A DNA stretch of 32,000 bases from Candidatus Poseidoniaceae archaeon (GTDB lineage Archaea > Thermoplasmatota > Poseidoniia > Poseidoniales > Poseidoniaceae), in the NCBI GenBank assembly GCA_943789275.1, contig CALSTM010000001.1, positions 1 to 32,000 of the forward strand. Reading direction: 5' to 3'. The notes below the pieces were generated by a model. It saw only the letters and a list, made by a program, of their open reading frames with translations, ran no database searches and was not told where the DNA came from. Positions 798 to 20,764 of the stretch are shown here, piece after piece. Numbering within the stretch: the first letter of the stretch is position 1; the number at the start of each line of letters is the position of its first letter. A program made the position numbers and the translations under genes.

Positions 798-1091
798 TTG
801 TGTCCCTCTTACATTACGTCTGTGTCTGTGGAAAATGCCTGGTCCGGAAAAGTCACACAAAGTGTAGACCTTCTTTCGGTTGAAGATGCTAGAAAAGCCC
901 TCTTCATTGCGGATCTTACTTCCAAGAATCTTGTCGATCACAATGTGCCAAACATTCCATTTCCCTCAAAATTATTCGACTTCAATTCCGAAAAACTTGT
1001 TTCAGTATTCTATGGTGCTAACGGCTCAGGAAAAACTACTGTAATGCAGTTAGTTAACGGTTTTTCCTCAATATTAAAGCCTCTTCTTTGA
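798..1091 (+). pseudogene. ATPase segment 1 (Walker A / P-loop)
   Basis: The sequence ...NVPNIPFPSKLFDFNSEKLVSVFYGANGSGKTTVMQLVNG... has the typical N-terminus of AAA_21/ABC-type ATPases. The track start is a TTG. GTG at 945 would give the usual ~25 residues before the P-loop. The segment ends CTT CTT TGA (1089-1091). Confidence 0.6.
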
Positions 1092-1155
1092 CCAACATAG
1101 CAATCAAATTACGAGAGGGGCATCTCTTGCAGACCTCAGCGATTGGAGTAACGGC

Positions 1156-1923
1156 GTGATACCAAAGGGTTTCCAAGATGAAAAGAATCCTCGTTGCATT
1201 AAGTTTCTTCAATTTGGAAATAATCCACTAATTGCAAACATCACTTCAAGTATGGTTCGTAGGCGTAACCCACCTTTTTCCTCTCCATTGGAATCCATAG
1301 ACTGGAGAAGTAAGTTTCGTTTTTCAATGGAGGGAGTATGCGTTACTCCTGAACTATGGGATTTGACCGAGGATGAAAGTAAAAAAGTAACTATTGACTC
1401 AAGGTATAAGATTGAATTACTACCAACAAATGGTGGAATTTGCCTTGATTCTAATGGTCTCATAAAGGATAATAAGAAGGTAATCGAGAATTTGGAAGGT
1501 ACTTTCTATGCTCTTCGAATTGAATCAACCTCGTTTGAGAACCACATTCAATCTAGCATTGGAAAAGAGCATGATGGCCCAATGATGGAAATCAAGAAAA
1601 CAGATGACGAAACTCTTCAACACTCAATGAAATACGAGATTCCTCTCATGATACATCCGGATGGAGGTGTTCTTGTAATGAGTAGAACAGTAATGGATTT
1701 CTCAGAACTTTGGAATCCCGAGAATTCGGAAAGAACTGAACGATTCTCTGGTATAGAGGAGGAGGATATCGTGGTGATGAACGAGGAAAAGAAGTCGCAT
1801 CTTCCACTACTACATTACATGCTTGAAAGACCTTATTTAGCCGACGCAATTGGTTTCAGTGACTTTTTCAACTCTTTATGCGTAGGTCCAGCTTCTGCCG
1901 AAGAAAGAAAATTGTCAATTTAG
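1156..1923 (+). CDS. hypothetical 255-aa ORF; most likely segment 2 of the interrupted ATPase (insertion domain)
   Basis: No motif was recognised. The frame is already open from 1078, overlapping the stop of segment 1, and the track start is a GTG. AT-rich codon usage matches the rest of the islet. Confidence 0.4.
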   Translation: MIPKGFQDEKNPRCIKFLQFGNNPLIANITSSMVRRRNPPFSSPLESIDWRSKFRFSMEGVCVTPELWDLTEDESKKVTIDSRYKIELLPTNGGICLDSNGLIKDNKKVIENLEGTFYALRIESTSFENHIQSSIGKEHDGPMMEIKKTDDETLQHSMKYEIPLMIHPDGGVLVMSRTVMDFSELWNPENSERTERFSGIEEEDIVVMNEEKKSHLPLLHYMLERPYLADAIGFSDFFNSLCVGPASAEERKLSI

Positions 1924-2596
1924 CCGACAAATGATGTACGAACTCTTTTCAGAAGGCACACGCAGTGATTTCTTTCTTTCGTTCGATATGAAACCCCACA
2001 TATCGAGGTGGAAAAGGCAATATGGCCCTTCCTTCACTTCTTGATAAATCACATTTTGAGCGTTGGGAAGAGACTTTGGAGAGCAGGGACGAAGCCTCTT
2101 TCGAGTGGAGTGTAGATCGCTGTCAAGGCATTGATTTTTACGACTTGGCCATTTCACTTCAGTCGGAGTATATTTGGCCATCGAATTACACCCCGAAGAA
2201 ACTGAAAATGCCTCCTAAGAAAGTGGGTCGATTTACCTAATTTAGACGTTCTCGACAATCGTGCAGTGTTCAACCATGCAAGATTGATTTTGAACACACC
2301 TGATACCGCCTATGATGCAATTACAGAATTTCTCTCAATGACTTTTGATAGCAACAATATCGAGGGCTTGTACGATGCCTTTGTCGAACTCAAATCACTT
2401 ATACCCAAATATCGTCAAGATTCCAAGAGATATGGGAACACTATTGACAGTTTCCTTTTTGGTGAAATTGTCTGGAATAAACCCAACAATTGCCATCCTT
2501 TCGACTGGTTGATGGAAAAAATACTCTGAATCCTTTACCGCTAAAGGCTTTGATGAAGAACATGCTAAGATTGCTGCACAATCTGAAATCAGACAT

Positions 2597-3076
2597 TTGA
2601 TTAAGAACGGTCTTGAACAGATTTGGTTCCAAGAACTTGAACAACATGTTGTTTCAAATCGATTTGAACTCATGAACCAATTGCTGGAGAAGTATCTTAA
2701 TATCTGCGTTCTTGAACCGAATCAAGGCTTCAACCCTAACCGCTTGTTGATTAGAAAAAATACGGATAAAACTCTTCCTCGTCATGGTAGGTTGAAACCA
2801 AATATAGCAATCAATCAATTCTCAAGCGGTATGAAGAATTTGTTTAATCTCATTATGGCACTTGGTAATACCGAAATAAAAGGGCCACTACTCATTGATG
2901 AACCTGAAATTTCACTTCACATTGATTGGGAATACGCATTGAAGGATATTGCCACAAGTTTAGCAGATTCGACGAAGCGTCAGATCATTTTCTCGACCCA
3001 CTCACCGGATTTAATCATGAACTTTGGTGACCGGTCGAAAGTGTTTTTATCGGAGTATGAGCATGATGGCGAATGA
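2597..3076 (+). pseudogene. ATPase C-terminal segment (signature motif, Walker B, D-loop, H-loop); frame open from 2513
   Basis: INQFSSGMKNLFNLIMALGNTEIKGPLLIDEPEISLHIDWEYALKDIATSLADSTKRQIIFSTHSPDLI is a canonical C-terminal half of an AAA_21/ABC ATPase. It lacks its own P-loop, so it cannot be a stand-alone ATPase. The track start at 2597 is a TTG. Confidence 0.7.
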
Positions 3077-3860
3077 TATCCTTCTCCCTTCTTCAAAACC
3101 TTCTTTGAAGAATCGCGTTCTTTTGAGAGCTAAAAACAATGAATCCATTATTTTAGTTGAAGGATGGGAAGACCGTCAGTTTGTTAAAAAGGTGATTGGA
3201 ACGAAGGAAGAACATTTTATTCAGGTTTGTGACGGAAAAGAAAATGTCGTCAGCTTTCTTAATACTGTGAACGATACTACGGAATCAACTGCTTTTGCTC
3301 TCGTAGACATTGATTATGATTGGGCAAGAGATGAACCTCCAAATTATCTTGAAAACGAACACATCTTCCACTATCCAGCGCATTCACTTGAATCTTTCAA
3401 ATTCTTTTTCGAAAATGACGAATTCATCTCAAACCATGTTCAAACTGGAAATATTTCATTTGCGATAAAATGTGCAGTGATTATAGGACGGTTACGGGCA
3501 TGGAACTCTTGGAGAGACTTGGGGAAAAATTTTGACAATAATCTAGACAATGTTAAGTTTGCATTCAATACCTCATTTCCTTCCCGCGATCATAATATTT
3601 TTCTCACACAACTTTTAGAAATTTTTGAACTTGGACCAAACTTCTATTCCAACACACTTGATCAACATCTCAATGCAGCACAAATGAATGATTCGTTCAT
3701 AATTCATGGAAAGGACTTGCACAAGTTTTTCACTTACATGCAAGATGGTAAAAGTTTCAGACTCATTAGTAACCATGAACTCTCGTTAAGAGTGAGAAAT
3801 AGCACAATGCACAGACAATTCTTGGAAGCCAACCTCATCAGTGCCGAGAATGGAAATTAA
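3057..3860 (+). CDS. Toprim-like (DUF4435 / PARIS AriB-like) putative nuclease
   Basis: The ORF is intact. ATG at 3057 (or ATG at 3063 with GGAG 7 nt upstream) overlaps the ATPase stop at 3074-3076, suggesting translational coupling. The N-terminal ESIILVEGWEDRQFV carries a Toprim-type Glu, and FALVDIDYDW carries the DxD motif, both as in DUF4435/OLD Toprim domains. Assignment is by motif only. Confidence 0.6.
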   Translation: MSMMANDILLPSSKPSLKNRVLLRAKNNESIILVEGWEDRQFVKKVIGTKEEHFIQVCDGKENVVSFLNTVNDTTESTAFALVDIDYDWARDEPPNYLENEHIFHYPAHSLESFKFFFENDEFISNHVQTGNISFAIKCAVIIGRLRAWNSWRDLGKNFDNNLDNVKFAFNTSFPSRDHNIFLTQLLEIFELGPNFYSNTLDQHLNAAQMNDSFIIHGKDLHKFFTYMQDGKSFRLISNHELSLRVRNSTMHRQFLEANLISAENGN

Positions 3861-3864
3861 CCGT

Positions 3865-3952
3865 TTACATGTTACGTCGGTATTGCCCACCGACGTTGAA
3901 CAGCGCATCGGTAATTTGTCCGAGTGAGGCGACTTTGACGGTCTCCATCAAT
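3865..3952. repeat. right copy of 88-bp direct repeat (functional 3' end of icmF)
   Basis: See 632-719. This copy is contiguous with the intact 1112-codon icmF ORF. Confidence 0.9.
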
Positions 3953-6900
3953 TCTTCAAACACGTTTCCTCCGAGCCTTGCAACTTCTTGCAATTGCTTG
4001 AGTGCGGCTTGGGTCACTTCACCCTCAACGGTTTGACGCTCAGTCACTCGCTCTAAGCACGCTTCTTTTTCTTCAGGCGTTGCACGTGCCAATTCCATTT
4101 CGAAATCATCGGCACTCGATTCATCGAACACCTGAGCATTCGGATTCTGGAAGGTATTGACACCAATAATTGGCAGTGTTCCATCGTGCTTGAGGTGTTC
4201 GTAATACATCGATTCATCCTGAATCTTACCACGCTGATACATGGTTTCCATTGCACCAAGAACGCCACCTCGTCGGCTGATGGCTTCGAACTCTTTGAGC
4301 ACAGCCTCTTCGACCAAATCGGTCAACTCGTCAACAATGAACGAGCCTTGCATTGGATTTTCAGTCTTGGTCCAGCCGCTTTCCTTGTTGACAATCAACT
4401 GGATGGCAAGGGCTCTACGAACACTTTCCTCGGTTGGCGTTGTGATGGCCTCATCGTAGGCGTTGGTGTGCAGAGAGTTTGCATTGTCTTGAATGGCAAG
4501 CAGGGCTTGGAGTGTCGTTCGAATATCGTTGAAGTCGATTTCTTGCGCGTGGAGGCTGCGTCCACTGGTTTGGATGTGATACTTGAGCTTCTGACTTCGC
4601 TCATCTGCATCATACAAGTCTCGCATGGTGATGGCCCAAATACGTCGAGCAACTCGGCCAATAACCGTGTATTCAGGGTCAAGTCCGTTACTGAAGAAGA
4701 ACGACAAGTTCGGTGCGAATTTGTTGATGTCCATACCTCGACTTCGATAGTATTCAACATAGGTAAAACCGTTGGCAAGTGTCAGTGCCAATTGCGTAAT
4801 TGGATTGGCTCCAGCCTCGGCAATATGGTAACCTGAAATCGAGACCGAGTAGTGGTTTCGCACACCTTGGTCAATGTAGTATTGCTGAACGTCGCCCATC
4901 ATCTTGAGTGCGAAAGGCGTTGAGAAGATACAGGTATTCTGTGCCTGGTCTTCTTTGAGAATGTCGGCTTGAACGGTTCCACGAACTGTCTGTAAGGTCC
5001 GTGCTTTGATTTCGCCGTAGGTGGCAGCATCGACCATTTCATCGCCTCGACGTCCAACGGTAGCAAGTCCAAACGCATTGTGACCTTCAGGCAAATCGCC
5101 TCTGTATGCTGCCTCTTTCAATTCGATACTCTTTCCTTCTTTGACAAGGTGTGCCTCAACCTGTTGGTCGATAGCAGCATTGAGGAAGAACGCGAGGATG
5201 ATTGGTGCAGGTCCGTTAATGGTCATGCTGACCGAAGTGTTCGGATCGCACAAATCAAATCCAGAATACAGACGCTTTGCATCATCGCATGTAGCAATAC
5301 TGACACCAGAGTTTCCAACCTTGCCCCAAATATCAGGGCGTCGAGCAGGGTCACGGCCATACAGAGTCACCGAGTCAAACGCTGTTGATAATCGAACGTA
5401 GTCTTGGCCTTTACTCAAGTAGTGGAATCGGCGATTGGTTCGCTCGGCCTCGCCTTCTCCTGCAAACATTCGAGCCGATAACTCGTCGGTTCGCTTGAAC
5501 GGGAACACGCCTGCTGTGAACGGGAAATGACCCGGAGCGTTCTCTCTCTTGATGAACGAAAACAATTCGCCGTCATCAGCAAAGGTCGGAAGAGCAACAC
5601 GAGGAATGTCGGAATGCGCTAAAGATTCGGTTGTGGTTTGGACCGTGAACGGCTTGCCCCGAACGTGATAGGTGAACTCGCCGCTTGAGTACTGTTCGGC
5701 AAGTGCTCGGAATGCAGACAATTCCTCTCGGGCCGTTTCAATCGATTCAAGAATCTCATCAATTTGTGCTTGCAGGTCAGCAGCGATGGTATTCGCACCA
5801 CGCTCAGTCGCATGGTTTGCAGCAGTCTCAAGGTGTTGGCACAAGCGCAATTGCTGTGCAACCGCTTCGTGTCCTGCATGGTATTCGCGCACCGTTGCCG
5901 CAATTTCGGACAGGTAGTAGATGCGTTCTGGAGGAATAACGCCCTTGGTCGTCCCCATCTCACCAACCGGTTCGCTCGCTTCAAAACCAACGATTTCAGA
6001 GAGTTTGCACCACAGCCGGTCAACACCACCGTCAGCAAATTGGCTGGCAATGGTCGCTACGACTGGAAGTTCTTCATCCGCAACGTCAAACATGTTTCTG
6101 TTGCGTCGAACTTGCTTTCGAATGGCCCGGAAGGCGTCTTCACTGCCACGCTTTTCGTACTTGTTGAGCACGACGATATCAGCGACATCGAGCATCTCGA
6201 TCTTTTCGAGTTGGGTATGTGCACCGAACTCAGCGGTCATGACGTAGAGCGAATGGTCGGCCACAGATGTGATGGCATCACTGCCTTGACCTATGCCGCT
6301 GGTCTCGCAGAAAATCATGTCAAATCCAACCGCTTTGGCCACCTCAATGGCTCGGTCGAGGTTGGCACTGATTTCAGAACCAGAGCCTCGGCTGGCGAGG
6401 CTTCGCATGAACAAGTCATTGTTCGAAAGTGAGTTCATCCGGATACGGTCGCCAAGCAACGCTCCTCCAGTTCGCTTTCGTGTCGGGTCAACGCACAGCA
6501 AGCAGACTTTCTTACCCGGATTGTCGCGTTGAATACGCAGCATCAATTCATCGAGCAGACTTGACTTTCCTGCTCCACCGGTTCCGGTGAAACCAATCAC
6601 GGGTATATCCTTGTCAGAAGACCGTGCAGTGGCGATGGCAGCCTTGAACGTCGCATCATCGGCGCTTTCTGACAGCGTCATCAACAAGCCAACTTTAGCC
6701 ATGTCTTCAGCAGTCACCGGTCCATCGATGGAAGCAAGTCTCGTTTCGCCAATCAAATCGACTTCGGATGCTTGGCCCATCAAGTGATGAATCATACCCA
6801 TGAGGCCCATGGTTCGCCCGTCGTCCGGTGAGTAAATCTTGGAGATCCCCGATTGATGCAGTGTTCGAATTTCTGGTGGCGTAATGGTTCCTCCACCGCC

Positions 6901-7203
6901 GCCAAAGATACGAACATGGTCGCATCCTGCTTCATCGAGCAGTTGACGAATGTAGGTGAAGTACTCAATGTGCCCACCTTGGTAGGAGGTTAGAGCCACA
7001 GCGTGAGCGTCTTCTTGGACAGCGCAATCAACCACAGCCTTGGCCGATTGGTCGTGACCCAAATGGATGACTTCAGCGCCCGAGGATTGAATCAATCTTC
7101 GCATGACGTTGATGGCTGCGTCGTGACCGTCGAACAGCGATGCTGCAGTGATGACACGGACCGGTCCGGTCGTCGTCTCGAATACGGGCTCTTCATCGGC
7201 CAT
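3865..7203 (-). CDS. icmF: fused isobutyryl-CoA mutase (B12-binding domain + MeaB-like G-protein + mutase substrate domain)
   Basis: 1112 aa. The N-terminal VITAASLFDGHDAAINVMRR carries the DxHxxG B12 motif. GFTGTGGAGKSSLLDEL is the MeaB-type P-loop. The large C-terminal domain is of the methylmalonyl/isobutyryl-CoA mutase type. Domain order and length match IcmF. Confidence 0.9.
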   Translation of the reverse strand: MADEEPVFETTTGPVRVITAASLFDGHDAAINVMRRLIQSSGAEVIHLGHDQSAKAVVDCAVQEDAHAVALTSYQGGHIEYFTYIRQLLDEAGCDHVRIFGGGGGTITPPEIRTLHQSGISKIYSPDDGRTMGLMGMIHHLMGQASEVDLIGETRLASIDGPVTAEDMAKVGLLMTLSESADDATFKAAIATARSSDKDIPVIGFTGTGGAGKSSLLDELMLRIQRDNPGKKVCLLCVDPTRKRTGGALLGDRIRMNSLSNNDLFMRSLASRGSGSEISANLDRAIEVAKAVGFDMIFCETSGIGQGSDAITSVADHSLYVMTAEFGAHTQLEKIEMLDVADIVVLNKYEKRGSEDAFRAIRKQVRRNRNMFDVADEELPVVATIASQFADGGVDRLWCKLSEIVGFEASEPVGEMGTTKGVIPPERIYYLSEIAATVREYHAGHEAVAQQLRLCQHLETAANHATERGANTIAADLQAQIDEILESIETAREELSAFRALAEQYSSGEFTYHVRGKPFTVQTTTESLAHSDIPRVALPTFADDGELFSFIKRENAPGHFPFTAGVFPFKRTDELSARMFAGEGEAERTNRRFHYLSKGQDYVRLSTAFDSVTLYGRDPARRPDIWGKVGNSGVSIATCDDAKRLYSGFDLCDPNTSVSMTINGPAPIILAFFLNAAIDQQVEAHLVKEGKSIELKEAAYRGDLPEGHNAFGLATVGRRGDEMVDAATYGEIKARTLQTVRGTVQADILKEDQAQNTCIFSTPFALKMMGDVQQYYIDQGVRNHYSVSISGYHIAEAGANPITQLALTLANGFTYVEYYRSRGMDINKFAPNLSFFFSNGLDPEYTVIGRVARRIWAITMRDLYDADERSQKLKYHIQTSGRSLHAQEIDFNDIRTTLQALLAIQDNANSLHTNAYDEAITTPTEESVRRALAIQLIVNKESGWTKTENPMQGSFIVDELTDLVEEAVLKEFEAISRRGGVLGAMETMYQRGKIQDESMYYEHLKHDGTLPIIGVNTFQNPNAQVFDESSADDFEMELARATPEEKEACLERVTERQTVEGEVTQAALKQLQEVARLGGNVFEELMETVKVASLGQITDALFNVGGQYRRNM

Positions 7204-15376: not shown

Positions 15377-17188
15377 CTATTCCTGTTCAAAATAAAGGGA
15401 ATATTCATCGTTCCAATCGATGGACGTCGCCTTGAACCACTCTTCAGCGGAATCAAACGCTTCTTGCCCGGGATTCTTTCGTTTACGCTTGGCACGCTGT
15501 GAAATGAGTTTCCAAGCAGTCTTTTCGCCGATGCCTGGAATGGCCTCTAATTGCTTTTGAGACACTTTTTCTGCCTGAAGTCCGGTTTCAACCCCTGTGA
15601 TCGAACGAGCTCCGTGTCCAGTAACAACGACGGTCGATTGAGTTTCGAGCGGAATATGGTATTCGACGCCAATGAGTATTGGATAAGCACCGATTTGCCT
15701 TCCAAAGGTGATGCCGGCTTTACCTCGGCATGACTCCGCAGTATGCGCTTCATTGAGGTGCGCAGTAAGTCTCGTTCGACCATCATGCGTCTCCCAATGC
15801 ACACCGGATAATTTTTCACCCAAAGGGAATAATTCTTCAAGGAGTGGGCCATCAATGGTGTCGCGAACGTTAGTTTTGAACGTGTTAAACGCTTTTTGAG
15901 GAATGTCTTGAAATCCTTCTCCTTCGACTTGCCGGATGTTAATACGGCGCAATAACAAACCCTCTCGGCGAATTTCATGCAGTAAGTCAAGGTTCATCTG
16001 GTAACTCGCCTCTGTTTCACCGTTTAACCCAGCAATAAAATTGAGTCCAGGTAGCAACTTTGGCAAACCTCTTTCTCCACGAACTGAACCGTATGTATTG
16101 ATCAGTCGTATTGCTGACTTGAGTTGAGCAGGGTCGCAATTGAGCCAATTCGCTTCGTGGACACTTGGGTCAGCTGATTCAAGACCAAATGAAAGTACGG
16201 CGCCATCAGATAATGTCTCAACGAGCGTTTTTGTGATTGCTTCGGATTCTTCGAGGTTTTCAGCAATGATTGAGGGGTTGCCGTTGTCGGTGTGAAGGAT
16301 TCCTAAACGCTCATCATCGCGTAAACCATGAAGCAGTTTGGCAATCGGCTCTGGATTTGGAACTGGATATTCAAGTTCCTTTACGCCTTCTGCCATGTAG
16401 GTGTAGGTGTCGGTCATGCCTCCAAGCCGAACATGCTGCACTCCTCCATCGTGAGCTCGACGAACTTCTTCGATAATGTCTTCCGGAGTTCGCCAAATCG
16501 GGACACCCTTCTTTGGTTCAATACAGAATTTGCATCCACGCTTGTAACGTACACATCCTTGGTAGACTTCGACTTCGTAGGTGAGGGGGCCTTTCTTTTC
16601 GTCAGTGCCAAGGTCAGGATGGGTTGTTACTGCCTTACTTAACGCCCCAGCCTGAGCCCATCGCGTCCATTGTTCTGCGCTCCGACGAGTGTGCTTCCAC
16701 GCCCCAGTTTCAAGATAGGTGTTCAGCGTTGCATCCGTGTCTTGAACGGCCAAAAAGAGATTCTTCCGCAGTGGTGTCCATCCTTGTTGCCTCCAACCAC
16801 GAATCGCCCATCCACCAAACAAAGCCGGAATTGAATGCGGTAGGTCTCGTATAAGGCTACGAGTTTCCTTTAGAGACAGTGGAGTTCCACGCAGATAGCG
16901 CCCTGGTACAACGGCTCCAGCAATACAAGCAAACCCTTCAAGTGTGGAAAGTCGTTTTTTTGCCCACTCATCACCGTTGCTGCGAATCAAGTCTCTCCAC
17001 TGATCGATGGTGAGATAATCGTAGTCGACATTCGCTTCTTCAAGCACTCCACAAAGATAGCGGATATGAAATCCAACATAAGGTGGGACACCAAACGCAG
17101 CTGGCTCATCTTCATAGCCGTCAAGAATCAACCATTTGGGTGAATGCTGTTCGACCATGTTGGCTAACCTCAGGTCGGTTGGCTTCAA
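15377..17188 (-). CDS. radical-SAM-type Fe-S enzyme with C-terminal helix-hairpin-helix (COG1031-like, function unknown)
   Basis: The Cys cluster GCVRYKRGCKFCIEP (C-x6-C-x2-C) is a variant of CX3CX2C. About 600 aa. The C-terminal LEAIPGIGEKTAWKLISQR is an HhH motif. The TTG start at 17188 overlaps the csl4 stop (TTGA). An alternative ATG lies at 17158. Confidence 0.6.
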   Translation of the reverse strand: MKPTDLRLANMVEQHSPKWLILDGYEDEPAAFGVPPYVGFHIRYLCGVLEEANVDYDYLTIDQWRDLIRSNGDEWAKKRLSTLEGFACIAGAVVPGRYLRGTPLSLKETRSLIRDLPHSIPALFGGWAIRGWRQQGWTPLRKNLFLAVQDTDATLNTYLETGAWKHTRRSAEQWTRWAQAGALSKAVTTHPDLGTDEKKGPLTYEVEVYQGCVRYKRGCKFCIEPKKGVPIWRTPEDIIEEVRRAHDGGVQHVRLGGMTDTYTYMAEGVKELEYPVPNPEPIAKLLHGLRDDERLGILHTDNGNPSIIAENLEESEAITKTLVETLSDGAVLSFGLESADPSVHEANWLNCDPAQLKSAIRLINTYGSVRGERGLPKLLPGLNFIAGLNGETEASYQMNLDLLHEIRREGLLLRRINIRQVEGEGFQDIPQKAFNTFKTNVRDTIDGPLLEELFPLGEKLSGVHWETHDGRTRLTAHLNEAHTAESCRGKAGITFGRQIGAYPILIGVEYHIPLETQSTVVVTGHGARSITGVETGLQAEKVSQKQLEAIPGIGEKTAWKLISQRAKRKRKNPGQEAFDSAEEWFKATSIDWNDEYSLYFEQE

Positions 17189-18678
17189 TCCTTCTTCTCG
17201 CGTCGACGTCGAGGACGCTTCTTTGAATCCTCTTCCTCTTCACGAAGTGCTTGAAGTTCACGGGATGATTTACCACCGGAGTTGTCAGAACCACGCTTTT
17301 CACGGTTGTTACCGCCTTTCTTTCCGCCTTGAGATACATCGACTTTGATGCGTCGTCCGAGCAATTCAGAACCGTTGAGTTTAGAGACAATTTCTTCACC
17401 CTTATCCATTTCCTTGATGAAGGCAAAAGCGAATCCCTTTGGTTTTCCATCACCACTGGTGGCGATAACAAGGCCGTTGACGGTTGCCATACCATCGAAC
17501 ATGGCTCGGATGTTTTCTTCAGTTGCCTTGAACGGAAGATTTCCGATGTAAAGTTTGAGTCCTTCAGGGTCCTTACGCTTTTCTCGCTTGCCCTTCTTGT
17601 CATCGCTGTCAGCATCTCGCACACCGATTTTACGGCCGTTGATTTTGTGGCCGTTGAGTTTTTCAGCTGCCGCATCCGCTTGAGACTTTTCAGAGTAAGT
17701 GACGAAACCGAATCCTCGGTTGACACCATTATCATCGGTCAACACAATACAATCGGTCATGTCGCCGTGTTCAGCAAACAGTGCACGAAGTTCTTCAGTT
17801 CCAACTTCACGCGGTAGGCCACCAACAAACAATCGGCAACCTGGTGCGTTTCGTGGACGGCGTCCTTTACCACCGCTCTCGCCTTCGAATCGGAAGTAGG
17901 TACGTTCACGGCCGTCTTCACGGACATCTGCTGCGATGAAGGTTGCTCGTCCTGCTGGTCCCTTGCCAAACATGGCCTCTGCAGCAGCACCCCAGCGCTT
18001 ACCGGAGTTGTTGAGCGCACTTGCACCTTGGTCGAGTTCAGCCCAACCAGCGCCGTAGTTGTCAGCGAGTGCTCGGTACGATTGGTAGTTGCATGTTGGA
18101 CATCGGACGTTCCAATCTCCATCGAGGTCAGCGCCCAACACATCGCCACACGATGGGCATATGGCATGGAGTACACCGCAGTCGTCACGGTCACGGAAAC
18201 TGATGCGTAAAACGGGGGATGTTTCTTTGACTTCTGCTCGACAGACATCTCGTCGTCGAACTGCGTCAGCGGTTTGGTGCATGTAGCGGTCGACTATTCC
18301 AGTGACGTGAAACTGACCGTAGAGGTGTTCAGGCAGAACGCTACCGGGCTTGCCTTCGATGCAAAGAACCTGAGCCTCTCCGTTCTTTTCGTTGAGTTTG
18401 ACAATTTCACAAAGCACGGTATCGCCGACTTCTGGTGTGACAATTTCCTTTTGAGCGGCAACGATGGCGATGCCGTCTTGAATTGAAAACATGCCTGTTG
18501 CGGTTGCTAAAATCGATCCATTGACTTCAATGGTTCCATCTCCAGCCTCGCATTCTGCTGAGGTTGATACTTGTGTTCCGGGGGTGACGAGGCTCGGCGT
18601 CATATTTTTCATTCCTGTAGCAAACATGGCCTGAGGTAGGTCGCATGCTGTTTCGCTTGATTGAACCGGTGTGTTCAC
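17185..18678 (-). CDS. csl4: exosome cap subunit Csl4 (N-domain + S1 + Zn-ribbon) fused to two C-terminal RRM domains and a basic tail
   Basis: Residues ~30-205 carry VTPGTQV..., GDTVLCEIVKL...AQVLCI (S1) and CPSCG...x...CPTCN (Zn-ribbon), as in archaeal Csl4. RRM1 spans aa 282-355 (RNP2 LFVGGL, RNP1 RGFGFVTY). RRM2 spans aa 374-448 (LYIGNL, KGFAFAFI). The Lys/Arg-rich tail is KKRPRRRREKKD. Confidence 0.85.
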   Translation of the reverse strand: MNTPVQSSETACDLPQAMFATGMKNMTPSLVTPGTQVSTSAECEAGDGTIEVNGSILATATGMFSIQDGIAIVAAQKEIVTPEVGDTVLCEIVKLNEKNGEAQVLCIEGKPGSVLPEHLYGQFHVTGIVDRYMHQTADAVRRRDVCRAEVKETSPVLRISFRDRDDCGVLHAICPSCGDVLGADLDGDWNVRCPTCNYQSYRALADNYGAGWAELDQGASALNNSGKRWGAAAEAMFGKGPAGRATFIAADVREDGRERTYFRFEGESGGKGRRPRNAPGCRLFVGGLPREVGTEELRALFAEHGDMTDCIVLTDDNGVNRGFGFVTYSEKSQADAAAEKLNGHKINGRKIGVRDADSDDKKGKREKRKDPEGLKLYIGNLPFKATEENIRAMFDGMATVNGLVIATSGDGKPKGFAFAFIKEMDKGEEIVSKLNGSELLGRRIKVDVSQGGKKGGNNREKRGSDNSGGKSSRELQALREEEEDSKKRPRRRREKKD

Positions 18679-18713
18679 CCCTTTTCAACCCCTCATATGG
18701 AGCGGTCGTGACC

Positions 18714-19367
18714 TCAATCCTCTTCCTCGAGCAACTTGGCGTCTCCGGGAAGATGAAAGCGCCAACACAACACAGTGGTAGCAGCCTTGCGCTTTGTGTG
18801 GTGCTGGTAGGTTGGAGGGAGGCGGAAATTAGTTTCCAGCATTGCTTCAGATTCGTAGCCGTATTCTTCTCCAAGTGCCTGCAGATGTTTGGATTTTGAA
18901 CTGTGAAGCACGTGGACAACCGGTGCTCCCAGCGAAAAGGCGTATTCAAGCAAAGGTCGGTCCGCCTTTGGAGTTTGCACACCCCATGGAGGATTCATCA
19001 CGACGAGATCAGGAGTTTGAGCGGGATGTACAGTCTCTTTTGTCACGTGTTCGTGCACAACTTCGCCTCGACCGCTGCAACGCAGGTTCACTTTCTCGGT
19101 ATTTGCCCTTGCAACTTCAACGACTTCGAGGTCCGCTTCCATCATCGTGACGTGTTCTGCACCGAGGAGTAGGCAACCGCATCCAAGGACTCCATTGCCG
19201 GCTCCGAGGTCGAGTACACTTTTCCCTTCAAGGCCATCGACTTGGTCGATTCCAAGAAGCCAATACGAAGCAAGGTCACCTTCAGTTGCGTATTGTTCAA
19301 GTTCCACAGATGTACAGGGGTGCGGTGATAATTTGGACAATTCAATGGCCAAATGTTTGGGACGCAT
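18714..19367 (-). CDS. class I SAM-dependent methyltransferase, METTL5/COG2263-like predicted RNA N6-adenine methylase
   Basis: Motif I is VLDLGAGNGVLGCG and motif IV is VVMNPPWG (NPPW, an amino-methyltransferase signature). About 215 aa. It lies immediately upstream of csl4. Confidence 0.8.
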   Translation of the reverse strand: MRPKHLAIELSKLSPHPCTSVELEQYATEGDLASYWLLGIDQVDGLEGKSVLDLGAGNGVLGCGCLLLGAEHVTMMEADLEVVEVARANTEKVNLRCSGRGEVVHEHVTKETVHPAQTPDLVVMNPPWGVQTPKADRPLLEYAFSLGAPVVHVLHSSKSKHLQALGEEYGYESEAMLETNFRLPPTYQHHTKRKAATTVLCWRFHLPGDAKLLEEED

Positions 19368-19371
19368 TCAA

Positions 19372-19581
19372 TCACCAGCGGGGCTGTTGATTGTACTGGT
19401 TTTGTTGATACTGCTGCTGTTGTTGAGCAAGAGCTTGTGCTTGAAGGCGCATGTAGTGAATTTGTTCAGCCTCATGGCGAAGTCGGGCAAGCAATTGTTC
19501 TCCAGGTTGTTGATTTCCACAAAATCTGCAGAATCGAATGCCATCTTGGTGTTGTTGTCCGCAACTGATACAGAATCCCAT
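19372..19581 (-). CDS. small zinc-ribbon protein with Gln-rich tail
   Basis: MGFCISCGQQHQDGIRFCRFCG gives CxxC-x11-CxxC. GGAGG lies ~8 nt upstream of ATG 19581. The C-terminus is QAQALAQQQQQYQQNQYNQQ. The stop is 4 nt before the methylase start. The longer track ORF (to 19719) overlaps the upstream gene. Confidence 0.5.
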   Translation of the reverse strand: MGFCISCGQQHQDGIRFCRFCGNQQPGEQLLARLRHEAEQIHYMRLQAQALAQQQQQYQQNQYNQQPRW

Positions 19582-19627
19582 GCGCTTGCCTCCATACCGT
19601 CCTTGAGTCGAATCAACTTGAACCTTC

Positions 19628-20764
19628 TCATTGCATCGATGCCAATTGCAAGAACACCGGCCAAGTTTCGAATCCTTCAGCAGTCGCTCTTTCGTTGAGG
19701 TTTTCCCATCGCGGGTCATCCATGATGTCGGATGCCGCTACACCTGCGGCTAAGAGCCCAGTCACGAGCTCTCGGAATTCACGCTCAACCTCAGACATTT
19801 CAGGTTCAGGCTCGGGTTCGACCTCAGGGATGGGGATGCTTGCTGGAGCTTCTGTGGCAACTGCCTCAACATGCGTGTGTTGTTCAGGTGGCACAGGTGC
19901 AGCCCTCTTGGATTCAGCGCCAGGCGGCAGTGGTACAAACGCGTGTTCTACTGCTGCAGGAGTTGCCTCTGGTTCAGGTTCTGCGTTTGGCAACTCCACA
20001 TGTGCGGTCTCATCGAGTTCTGCACTTTCCGTCATTTCAGCCAGCATGTTGGTGGAAAAATCATCCATCATTTCGTTCATGTTTGCTTCAGAGGCTTGGG
20101 CCACTGCGGGTGCAGCAACGGGCATGTCTTCTGGAGCAACTTCTGTAATTTTCGCCTTCTTTTGGAGTCGGCCAACACCCAACACTTCTGCTTGCTGCCG
20201 AGCGAGTTCAGCGGCTTGACGTCGTGGGAGGCTAACAAAACATTTGCCAGGGACTGAGCTGACAGGGAAGGGGAGGAAGTAACGCTCAAGCGGGGGTAGG
20301 GACGGGTGACGGAAGCACAAGATCCGTTGCGATTCAAACGCCCGCTGACTGGGTAAATTCATCGAGAAGGGAACGGGGGAGATTTCGATTGAACTTCGTA
20401 ACCATTGTTCGTTACTGATGAGATGCTGCATCCAAGGTCCCAAATCTGGGCTTGCTATATCGACGAATTGGAAGGAGGCATCCCGTGGATTGAACTGTTG
20501 TTTTTCAAGCAAGGGGGCCTCTTCACGAGGTCGATGGAATACGGTGAGTACCGGTTGACCATGTTCGACCATATCACCATGCAATTCCATCAGCTTTCGT
20601 TCTTTACGAGGGCAAATGAGAAGAATGAGCATTCGTGCAGCATTTTCATCCCAGATTTCTCCCCATCGAGCCTCAGCCTCGTTGGCGAGTTGTCCGAGGG
20701 TCATGTCGGGAATCATTGCTGTAATACCCATGTCCGCACCAAACCGAGGGTGTGGTCGAGGCAT
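19628..20764 (-). CDS. hypothetical protein, globular N-half and acidic Pro/Glu/Ala-rich C-half
   Basis: 378-aa ORF in the same directon. No motif was recognised. Low-complexity EPEPEATPAAVE.../PEVEPEPEPE segments are present. Confidence 0.55.
   Translation of the reverse strand: MPRPHPRFGADMGITAMIPDMTLGQLANEAEARWGEIWDENAARMLILLICPRKERKLMELHGDMVEHGQPVLTVFHRPREEAPLLEKQQFNPRDASFQFVDIASPDLGPWMQHLISNEQWLRSSIEISPVPFSMNLPSQRAFESQRILCFRHPSLPPLERYFLPFPVSSVPGKCFVSLPRRQAAELARQQAEVLGVGRLQKKAKITEVAPEDMPVAAPAVAQASEANMNEMMDDFSTNMLAEMTESAELDETAHVELPNAEPEPEATPAAVEHAFVPLPPGAESKRAAPVPPEQHTHVEAVATEAPASIPIPEVEPEPEPEMSEVEREFRELVTGLLAAGVAASDIMDDPRWENLNERATAEGFETWPVFLQLASMQ

Follow-up and report, generated by a model that had tools for sequence, protein, structure and literature searches.

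The window, a 32,000-nucleotide stretch of a Candidatus Poseidoniaceae archaeon (contig CALSTM010000001.1, positions 1 to 32,000), encodes on its reverse strand a fusion of the exosome cap subunit Csl4 with two RNA recognition motif (RRM) domains. The open reading frame (ORF) at 17185..18678(-) has 497 amino acids (aa) and comprises a Csl4 body, two RRMs and a charged tail. It is a real and old gene fusion under strong selection. The gene is probably the Poseidoniales (Marine Group II) ortholog of Csl4, with a permanent, selected C-terminal extension that would serve RNA capture. Canonical archaeal Csl4 stops after the zinc ribbon (~180 aa), whereas the Poseidoniales protein runs 286 residues further. 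Beyond the canonical end at about residue 211, these extra residues form a post-ribbon module, a Gly/Arg-rich linker, the two RRMs, a Gly/Lys-rich spacer and a helix with a basic tail (Table 1).

Substrate choice by the archaeal exosome is poorly understood, and work in thermophiles has supplied all known specificity factors, namely Rrp4, DnaG and some partners. Among the most abundant archaea of the surface ocean, one group would show a different solution: canonical RNA-binding domains are fused to the cap as lineage-specific cassettes. The fusion also represents a defined, clonable construct for the study of a possible substrate recruitment in cis.

The Csl4 body and the appended domains

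The Csl4 body is complete and canonical. An earlier note, made from the sequence of the window, had placed a complete Csl4 accurately at nt 18064-18591. The NCBIfam Csl4 equivalog NF034126 matched aa 30-209 with 100.9 bits (cut-off 90), covering model positions 2-179 of 180. A phmmer comparison of the N-terminal 190 residues with the A. fulgidus Csl4 (AF_0206, 2ba1_A, 179 aa) aligned residues 3-177 of 179. The canonical protein (PDB 2BA1/3M7N) has the same N-terminal domain, S1 domain and 4-Cys zinc ribbon, aligned end to end, and is the top structural match. The four ribbon cysteines (C174, C177, C193, C196) are in register with AF_0206 (CPSC...CPTC vs CSNC...CPEC). They are invariant in relatives with at least 65% identity; one is replaced in the distant member P0123. 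The C-terminus of AF_0206, '...STDYGKG', aligns with '...LADNYGAG' at ORF residues 204-211. The rule that canonical archaeal Csl4 ends at the ribbon agrees with the 180 positions of the model and the 179 aa of AF_0206.

Domain searches bore out the assignment, though not every Pfam model reached its threshold. The N-terminal domain ECR1_N (PF14382, aa 30-63) stayed below its threshold in the window protein (21.8 vs 27 bits) but exceeded it in relatives (39.4 bits in P0123). The VTPG motif of this domain does not vary among relatives, and its fold aligns to 2ba1_A. The S1 region had no separate Pfam S1 match, but lies within the Csl4 model and the AF_0206 alignment. Two AlphaFold2 (AF2) models were built. 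Model 1 is based on 33 family members and yields, besides a confident Csl4 body, the two RRMs. Model 2 comprises Csl4 and the next 70 residues and is based on 66 sequences. The S1 region is a predicted barrel with a predicted local distance difference test (pLDDT) value of ~90, for which Foldseek returned Csl4, Rrp4 and Rrp40. The best Foldseek match for both models was 2ba1_A (E 1e-15 to 3e-16, target TM 0.62-0.64). Model 2 retrieved exosome cap subunits only: archaeal, yeast, human and C. thermophilum Csl4, then Rrp4/Rrp40. Its alignments never exceed the length of their Csl4 targets. Eukaryotic Csl4 (EXOSC1) was matched over the canonical-length body only. We know of no RRMs in the eukaryotic protein.

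Two canonical RRMs had been proposed at nt 17335-17835, and these coordinates are accurate. Pfam RRM_1 (PF00076) matches twice, with 108 bits in total (cut-off 20.7). Across 33 sequences, F259, G297, F298, G299, F300 and V301 of RRM1 (model numbering) are invariant, and the equivalent RNP residues of RRM2 are nearly so. Both domains are predicted to fold as beta-alpha-beta-beta-alpha-beta, with a pLDDT of 75-81 (AF2, model residues 257-330 and 349-423). After 2ba1_A, the Foldseek matches of model 1 are the tandem-RRM proteins Sxl, HuD, hnRNP A1, HuR and PABP. Residues 282-448 have their best sequence and fold matches in PABP RRM1-2, hnRNP A1 UP1, HuR/HuD and Sxl. These proteins share the canonical RNP motifs and a short charged inter-RRM spacer with the window protein, but none is fused to an exosome subunit. 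The inter-RRM spacer is predicted to be disordered. From the end of RRM1 into this spacer, G352-K362 (GVRDADSDDKK) is mostly invariant in relatives with at least 65% identity.

The named best non-fusion RRM matches are eukaryotic multi-RRM proteins, a ranking biased by additive multi-domain scores; the archaeal RRMs may be of bacterial, eukaryotic or old archaeal descent. According to a recent analysis, eukaryotes probably obtained RRM proteins from bacteria (PMC9887622), and RRMs are therefore not seen as archaeal heritage. The Poseidoniales fusion adds a well-sampled archaeal case to the debate on the origins of RRM proteins. Should the RRMs turn out to be old in this lineage and not recently imported, a purely bacterial source of the eukaryotic RRM proteins would be called into question.

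The most conserved segment is located between the zinc ribbon and RRM1. This post-ribbon module (aa 212-266) is not a plain linker. Its first half is predicted to form three short helices around an invariant LNxxGxRW, with a pLDDT of ~80 in the deeper alignment. In the second half lies GRATFIAADVREDGRERTYFRFEG, nearly invariant in relatives with at least 65% identity and predicted to be disordered (pLDDT <50). In distant members, just R/AD-x-R-x-DG is retained. The core motif LNxxGxRW...AD-x-R-x-DG is common to every architectural variant. No relative of the module was detected in Pfam or the PDB. Conservation of a half that is predicted to be disordered would be expected if this segment served for docking and folded upon contact with a partner.

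The basic tail after the RRMs, already recognised in the earlier note, is also conserved. Its motif [SK]RE-x-x-A-x-x-EE is kept down to 35% identity and is also present in an RRM-less relative (P0158). The motif is part of a predicted helix (model residues 447-460). An assignment of the tail to SHOCT (PF09851/PF20612) was rejected. The window protein had no match, and the tails of two distant lineages are weakly SHOCT-like, below the cut-offs of 24-27 bits (21-22 bits for P0134 and 14 bits for P0130). The last 28 codons (17188-17271) have a synonymous divergence (dS) of 0.40-0.88, compared with 1.0-2.8 in the rest of the gene. An overlapping constraint may lower the dS of the tail, for instance one imposed by the beginning of the downstream radical SAM gene or by an RNA element.

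Conservation, variants and annotation

The homolog search yielded 301 proteins. The best 120 of these are all full length (450-504 aa) with 66-97% identity, on contigs of up to 1.08 Mb. An exhaustive search of 1.84 billion cluster representatives added full-length two-RRM members at 52, 45, 43, 46, 41 and 39% identity. Altogether, the full-length relatives span 36-97% identity and their contigs reach about 2 Mb. The gene has one vertically inherited locus and always resides in a conserved string: (NMD3-PGI-M23 peptidase), a ~760-aa protein, GT2, further genes, a small zinc-ribbon protein, the MTS methyltransferase, the Csl4 fusion, the radical SAM/helix-hairpin-helix (HhH) protein, UDG and an AMP-binding enzyme. 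The string is present in the window and in the loci L001 (65% identity), L085 (45%), L086 (36-39%), L168 and L169.

Non-synonymous divergence (dN) was computed per segment against two relatives. The post-ribbon module has the lowest value of all segments (0.016-0.033), followed by the inter-RRM spacer (0.024-0.038), RRM2 (0.038-0.082), RRM1 (0.045-0.086) and the Csl4 body (0.065-0.11). The Gly/Lys-rich spacer has the highest (0.11-0.49). Omega is about 0.01-0.1 in structured parts, a rough estimate with saturated synonymous sites. Every added segment is under purifying selection.

The start codon of the mechanically called ORF, GTG 18678, is probably too far upstream, since in homologs of 465-485 aa the first residue corresponds to M18 or M26. 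M26 is invariant among relatives. The true start is probably ATG 18627 (M18) or ATG 18603 (M26).

Several database entries seemed to represent separate or shorter genes and were rejected as such. The 115-aa 'RNA-binding protein' entries (P0300, P0302) start at an internal methionine of RRM2. P0136 (277 aa) is not an RRM-less variant: its locus L087 belongs to a frameshift-ridden long-read assembly and has RRM fragments just downstream. P0164 (245 aa) is not a short Csl4, but a fusion broken across three frames. The entire fusion is present in L087 and L171, split over two to three frames in error-prone assemblies. The short Csl4-like relatives (163-277 aa) that could be checked are broken fusions. 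P0159 lies on a contig of 1.6 kb, too short to judge; P0157 and P0159 are probably the same kind of spurious short representative. Some public marine assemblies (L087, L171, L001; long-read 'pilon' assemblies of the ENA and others) have dense frameshifts that break nearly every gene.

The names of the sources place the Csl4-RRM family in Marine Group II (Poseidoniales), 'Candidatus Thermoplasmatota/Poseidoniia'. Members of the RRM-RRM form are named Candidatus Poseidonia or Poseidoniaceae, and the window protein belongs by similarity to this group with Poseidoniaceae as named members. A second form has a zinc finger and one RRM. It has 244 matches and at least 120 clusters with 59-100% identity; their source names are Candidatus Thalassarchaeum, Thalassarchaeaceae, Poseidoniales or Poseidoniia. 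This variant of the Thalassarchaeaceae (Marine Group IIb; P0141 family) has the same locus, methyltransferase, Csl4 body and post-ribbon LNxxGxRW module, but a zinc finger of the CxxC-x17-CxxC treble-clef type replaces RRM1, and the SRELxAxxEE tail motif is absent. A rare lineage (two assemblies) carries a pair of such fingers together with RGG-type repeats and lacks an RRM. Both zinc-finger variants (L002, L004) directly follow the same methyltransferase and also have the same wider neighbours; they are therefore positional orthologs. A putative one-RRM form (P0134) was found on short contigs only. This modular cassette suggests selection for an RNA-binding appendage as such.

Two-RRM proteins carry the NCBI label 'exosome complex RNA-binding protein Csl4', without mention of the RRMs. 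JGI labels are 'RNA recognition motif-containing protein/exosome complex RNA-binding protein Csl4' or 'nucleolin'. The zinc-finger family (P0141 family; 10001-11314 in L002/L003) is mostly labelled 'hypothetical' or 'CxxC-x17-CxxC domain-containing protein', and also 'cold-inducible RNA-binding protein'. Hundreds of Thalassarchaeaceae/Poseidoniia entries are Csl4 orthologs whose identity was largely missed in annotation. Entries labelled 'hypothetical', 'nucleolin', 'CxxC-x17-CxxC protein' or 'cold-inducible RNA-binding protein' are hereby flagged as such. The earlier note had considered that such fusions might already be common and annotated across archaea. They are common and annotated in databases, but confined to Poseidoniales and close kin. 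Its author was not aware of any description of the architecture. Full-text literature searches found no paper describing a Csl4-RRM architecture, but NCBI and JGI entries already carry Csl4 names. The architecture is thus visible in databases and, as far as found, undescribed in papers.

Other Csl4 relatives of 257-360 aa without RRMs were also observed (P0523-P0528). The only named one is the 360-aa protein of Methanolapillus millepedarum. Extended forms of Csl4 may thus occur beyond the Poseidoniales clade.

Exosome association and proposed role

Archaeal caps are trimers of Rrp4 and/or Csl4 on an Rrp41/Rrp42 ring. By analogy with archaeal exosomes of known structure, the Csl4 body of the fusion would be placed on this ring such that S1 lies at the entry pore and the zinc ribbon at the rim. 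From this position of the ribbon, the extension would leave from the rim, and flexible linkers would tether up to three tandem-RRM units per complex above the entry pore. The RRM units could hold stretches of single-stranded RNA and locally enrich 3'-ends at the S1 pore. Such a capture would bias which RNAs are degraded or A-tailed. The earlier note had likewise proposed that added modules for single-stranded RNA would alter substrate recruitment, which is plausible. The extension would then perform in cis the task that falls to DnaG, Rrp4 or eukaryotic adaptors with RRMs in trans. The post-ribbon module and the C-terminal helix may be docking elements for the ring, neighbouring cap subunits, or a partner, for instance DnaG or aRNase J. 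DnaG binds to the exosome via Csl4 and adds a poly(A) preference (PMC3672285), and aRNase J requires the C-terminal domain of Csl4 (PMC7144898). A broader proposal is put forward tentatively: the fusion may be an order-wide, hard-wired substrate-selection adaptor (tandem RRMs, or a zinc finger and an RRM in the sister family), whose cassette would have been swapped between families to retune the RNAs degraded or tailed and in which module and helix are new docking elements.

Known systems offer partial parallels. In S. solfataricus, DnaG also provides extra RNA-binding capacity at Csl4 and shifts the substrate preference (PMC3672285, PMC4227792). DnaG is a separate polypeptide with unrelated folds, whereas the Poseidoniales RNA-binding domains are RRMs covalently fused to Csl4. 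The eukaryotic exosome adaptors RBM7 (of NEXT) and Nrd1-Nab3 use RRMs in trans to capture single-stranded RNA and hand it to the exosome channel. These adaptors are separate complexes acting through helicases (Mtr4). The same logic of RRM capture is proposed for the Poseidoniales, by analogy, but their RRMs are part of a core cap subunit. Bacterial PNPase carries C-terminal KH and S1 domains in cis on an RNase PH-like core. PNPase, too, is a phosphorolytic 3'-5' machine with RNA-binding modules as covalent parts that feed its channel, but KH and S1 are located on the catalytic chain. Unlike PNPase, the Poseidoniales fusion has its RRMs on a non-catalytic cap subunit.

Several observations weigh against an exosomal RNA-capture subunit. 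Rrp41 was searched with a S. solfataricus sequence that is 100% identical to 2br2_B, and Rrp41 alignments were used for scans of genome and metagenome contigs. No Poseidoniales were among the best 80 Rrp41 loci of either the genome-contig or the metagenome-contig scan. These loci belong to Thermoplasmatales, Methanomassiliicoccales, Thermococcus and methanogens, and those inspected show the usual psmA-SBDS-Rrp4-Rrp41-Rrp42 layout. The literature supports Rrp41 and Rrp42 in Poseidoniales by elimination only, which is indirect. In a published marker table, each was present in 46 of 49 archaeal lineage clusters, and Poseidoniales is one of the 49. The exosome is reported to be lacking in three lineages, Halobacteria, Methanomicrobiales and Methanococci, which would account for the three clusters without Rrp41/Rrp42. 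A second, canonical Csl4 may be encoded elsewhere in the genome. The organisms are uncultured, and RNA capture by the extension is deduced from sequence. RRMs can also mediate protein-protein contacts. Finally, module and tail are in part predicted to be disordered, which makes their docking role a guess.

The Rrp41 searches gave further observations. A candidate Poseidoniales Rrp41 locus, L136, is Methanomassiliicoccales-like instead. A methyltransferase homolog near Rrp42 in L022 was considered as a Csl4 context and rejected, as no Csl4 follows. About 130 kb of Poseidoniales loci contained no exosome genes. Among the best 80 genome-contig loci, Rrp42 follows Rrp41 except in two without a detected second RNase PH ORF. 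The Rrp41-Rrp42 fusion construct of PDB 8xfx (8xfx_A) is 99% identical to a Thermoplasma metagenome-assembled genome (L005) and is an unexpectedly good Thermoplasmatota probe.

The lack of Poseidoniales among the best 80 Rrp41 loci would also agree with an exosome-independent RNA-binding protein, in which the Csl4 body (S1 and zinc ribbon) was co-opted as a further RNA-binding module of an hnRNP- or nucleolin-like factor, for instance in ribosomal RNA maturation, as an RNA chaperone or in a cold response. We consider this unlikely. The RRMs together with Gly/Arg-rich and basic tails resemble nucleolin (PDB match 9cb5), and the methyltransferase and radical SAM/HhH genes on either side hint at RNA modification as the setting. 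The JGI names 'nucleolin' and 'cold-inducible RNA-binding protein' point in the same direction, but stem from automatic RRM matches. The whole Csl4 body is canonical and above the equivalog cut-off. ECR1_N is the ring anchor of cap subunits in exosomes of known structure (2BA1 and related); it is kept, with an invariant VTPG. The report of Rrp41/Rrp42 in 46/49 archaeal lineages also argues against a function apart from the exosome.

Even less probable is a cap subunit with RRMs of mainly protein-interaction or autoregulatory function, which might bring in a helicase or nuclease, or gate the S1 pore by folding back onto it. RRMs are known for protein-protein contacts (PMC9887622), and partner proteins are known to dock at the C-terminal domain of Csl4. 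The strongest constraint acts on the non-RRM module and the spacers, which are predicted to be disordered and resemble docking motifs. Against this, both RRMs keep all base-stacking aromatics of RNP1 and RNP2, invariant or nearly so across the family, and sister lineages replace RRM1 by treble-clef zinc fingers and RGG-type repeats, which are presumed to bind nucleic acids. An artefact, that is, adjacent Csl4 and RRM genes joined near 17840-18060 through a frameshift, an overlooked stop codon or assembly chimerism, is refuted, because the fusion is conserved at one syntenic locus as continuous full-length proteins in hundreds of independent assemblies with the junction region as the most conserved part, and because the short entries that would speak for it (115-aa 'RNA-binding protein'; Csl4-like of 163-277 aa) are themselves artefacts where they could be checked (P0300, P0302, L087, L171).

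Gene neighbourhood and other features of the window

The methyltransferase gene adjoins the Csl4 gene in L001-L004, L085, L168 and L169; L086 has a 225-aa ORF with no recorded Pfam match in this position. A methyltransferase-adjacent context is reported to be typical of canonical archaeal Csl4 as well. On the other side, the radical SAM gene adjoins the fusion in L001, L085, L086, L168 and L169. The stop codon of the fusion overlaps a candidate TTG start of the radical SAM gene, and the two genes are probably co-transcribed. The flanking methyltransferase and radical SAM/HhH genes are on the same strand with tiny gaps, which suggests RNA metabolism as a common theme: the string 15377-20764 is probably one RNA-metabolism operon.

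Table 1. The Csl4-RRM gene, its segments and its neighbours in the window.
Feature	Position	Strand	Remarks
Csl4-2xRRM gene	17185..18627	-	Stop TGA 17185-17187
Canonical Csl4 body, ORF aa 26-211	18046..18603	-	Profile, alignment, AF2 (pLDDT 85-93), Foldseek
ECR1_N N-terminal domain of the Csl4 body	about 18490-18603	-	
S1-like beta-barrel of the Csl4 body	about 18199-18420	-	
4-Cys zinc ribbon of the Csl4 body (C174, C177, C193, C196)	about 18046-18177	-	
Lineage-specific post-ribbon module, aa 212-266	17881..18045	-	Conservation, lowest dN
Gly/Arg-rich flexible linker, aa 267-281	17836..17880	-	Length varies, pLDDT low
RRM1, aa 282-356 (RNP2 LFVGGL, RNP1 RGFGFVTY)	17611..17835	-	Pfam RRM_1 on 283-351, AF2
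Charged inter-RRM spacer, aa 357-373, DADSDDKKGKREKRKD	17560..17610	-	Conserved, low dN
RRM2, aa 374-448 (RNP2 LYIGNL, RNP1 KGFAFAFI)	17335..17559	-	Second Pfam RRM_1 stretch, AF2
Gly/Lys-rich low-complexity spacer, aa 449-469	17272..17334	-	Fastest-evolving, length varies
Conserved C-terminal tail, aa 470-497: predicted helix SRELQALREEEED, then basic end KKRPRRRREKKD	17188..17271	-	
MTS-type methyltransferase, directly upstream of the fusion	18714..19367	-	Pfam MTS, PrmA, Cons_hypoth95
Radical SAM + helix-hairpin-helix protein, 603 aa, directly downstream	15377..17188	-	Pfam Radical_SAM, HHH; weakly MiaB/RimO-like
Same-strand string: ~378-aa acidic protein (no Pfam match), 115-aa Zn_Ribbon_1 protein, methyltransferase, Csl4-2xRRM, radical SAM	15377-20764	-	Tiny gaps

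The region 1000-4000 of the window is a low-GC island, with a GC content of 0.39-0.40 compared with ~0.50 elsewhere. Two ORFs, 2597..3076(+) and 3024..3860(+), encode an AAA_15/AAA_21 ATPase fragment beside a DUF4435 protein. The best PADLOC match of the ATPase fragment is AriA, with PtuA nearly equal; at 159 aa it looks truncated. The sole PADLOC match of the DUF4435 protein is AriB. In combination, the two resemble a PARIS-like anti-phage pair, here in the genome of a Marine Group II archaeon. Upstream of the ATPase, a 255-aa ORF (1156..1923) had no match.

A 1112-aa protein is encoded at 3865-7203(-), an IcmF-like fusion of a B12-binding domain, a MeaB GTPase and a methylmalonyl-CoA-mutase. 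L086 has the same fused form, which is probably the normal state in the clade. The apparently split B12-binding, MeaB and mutase genes in L001 are probably a frameshift artefact.

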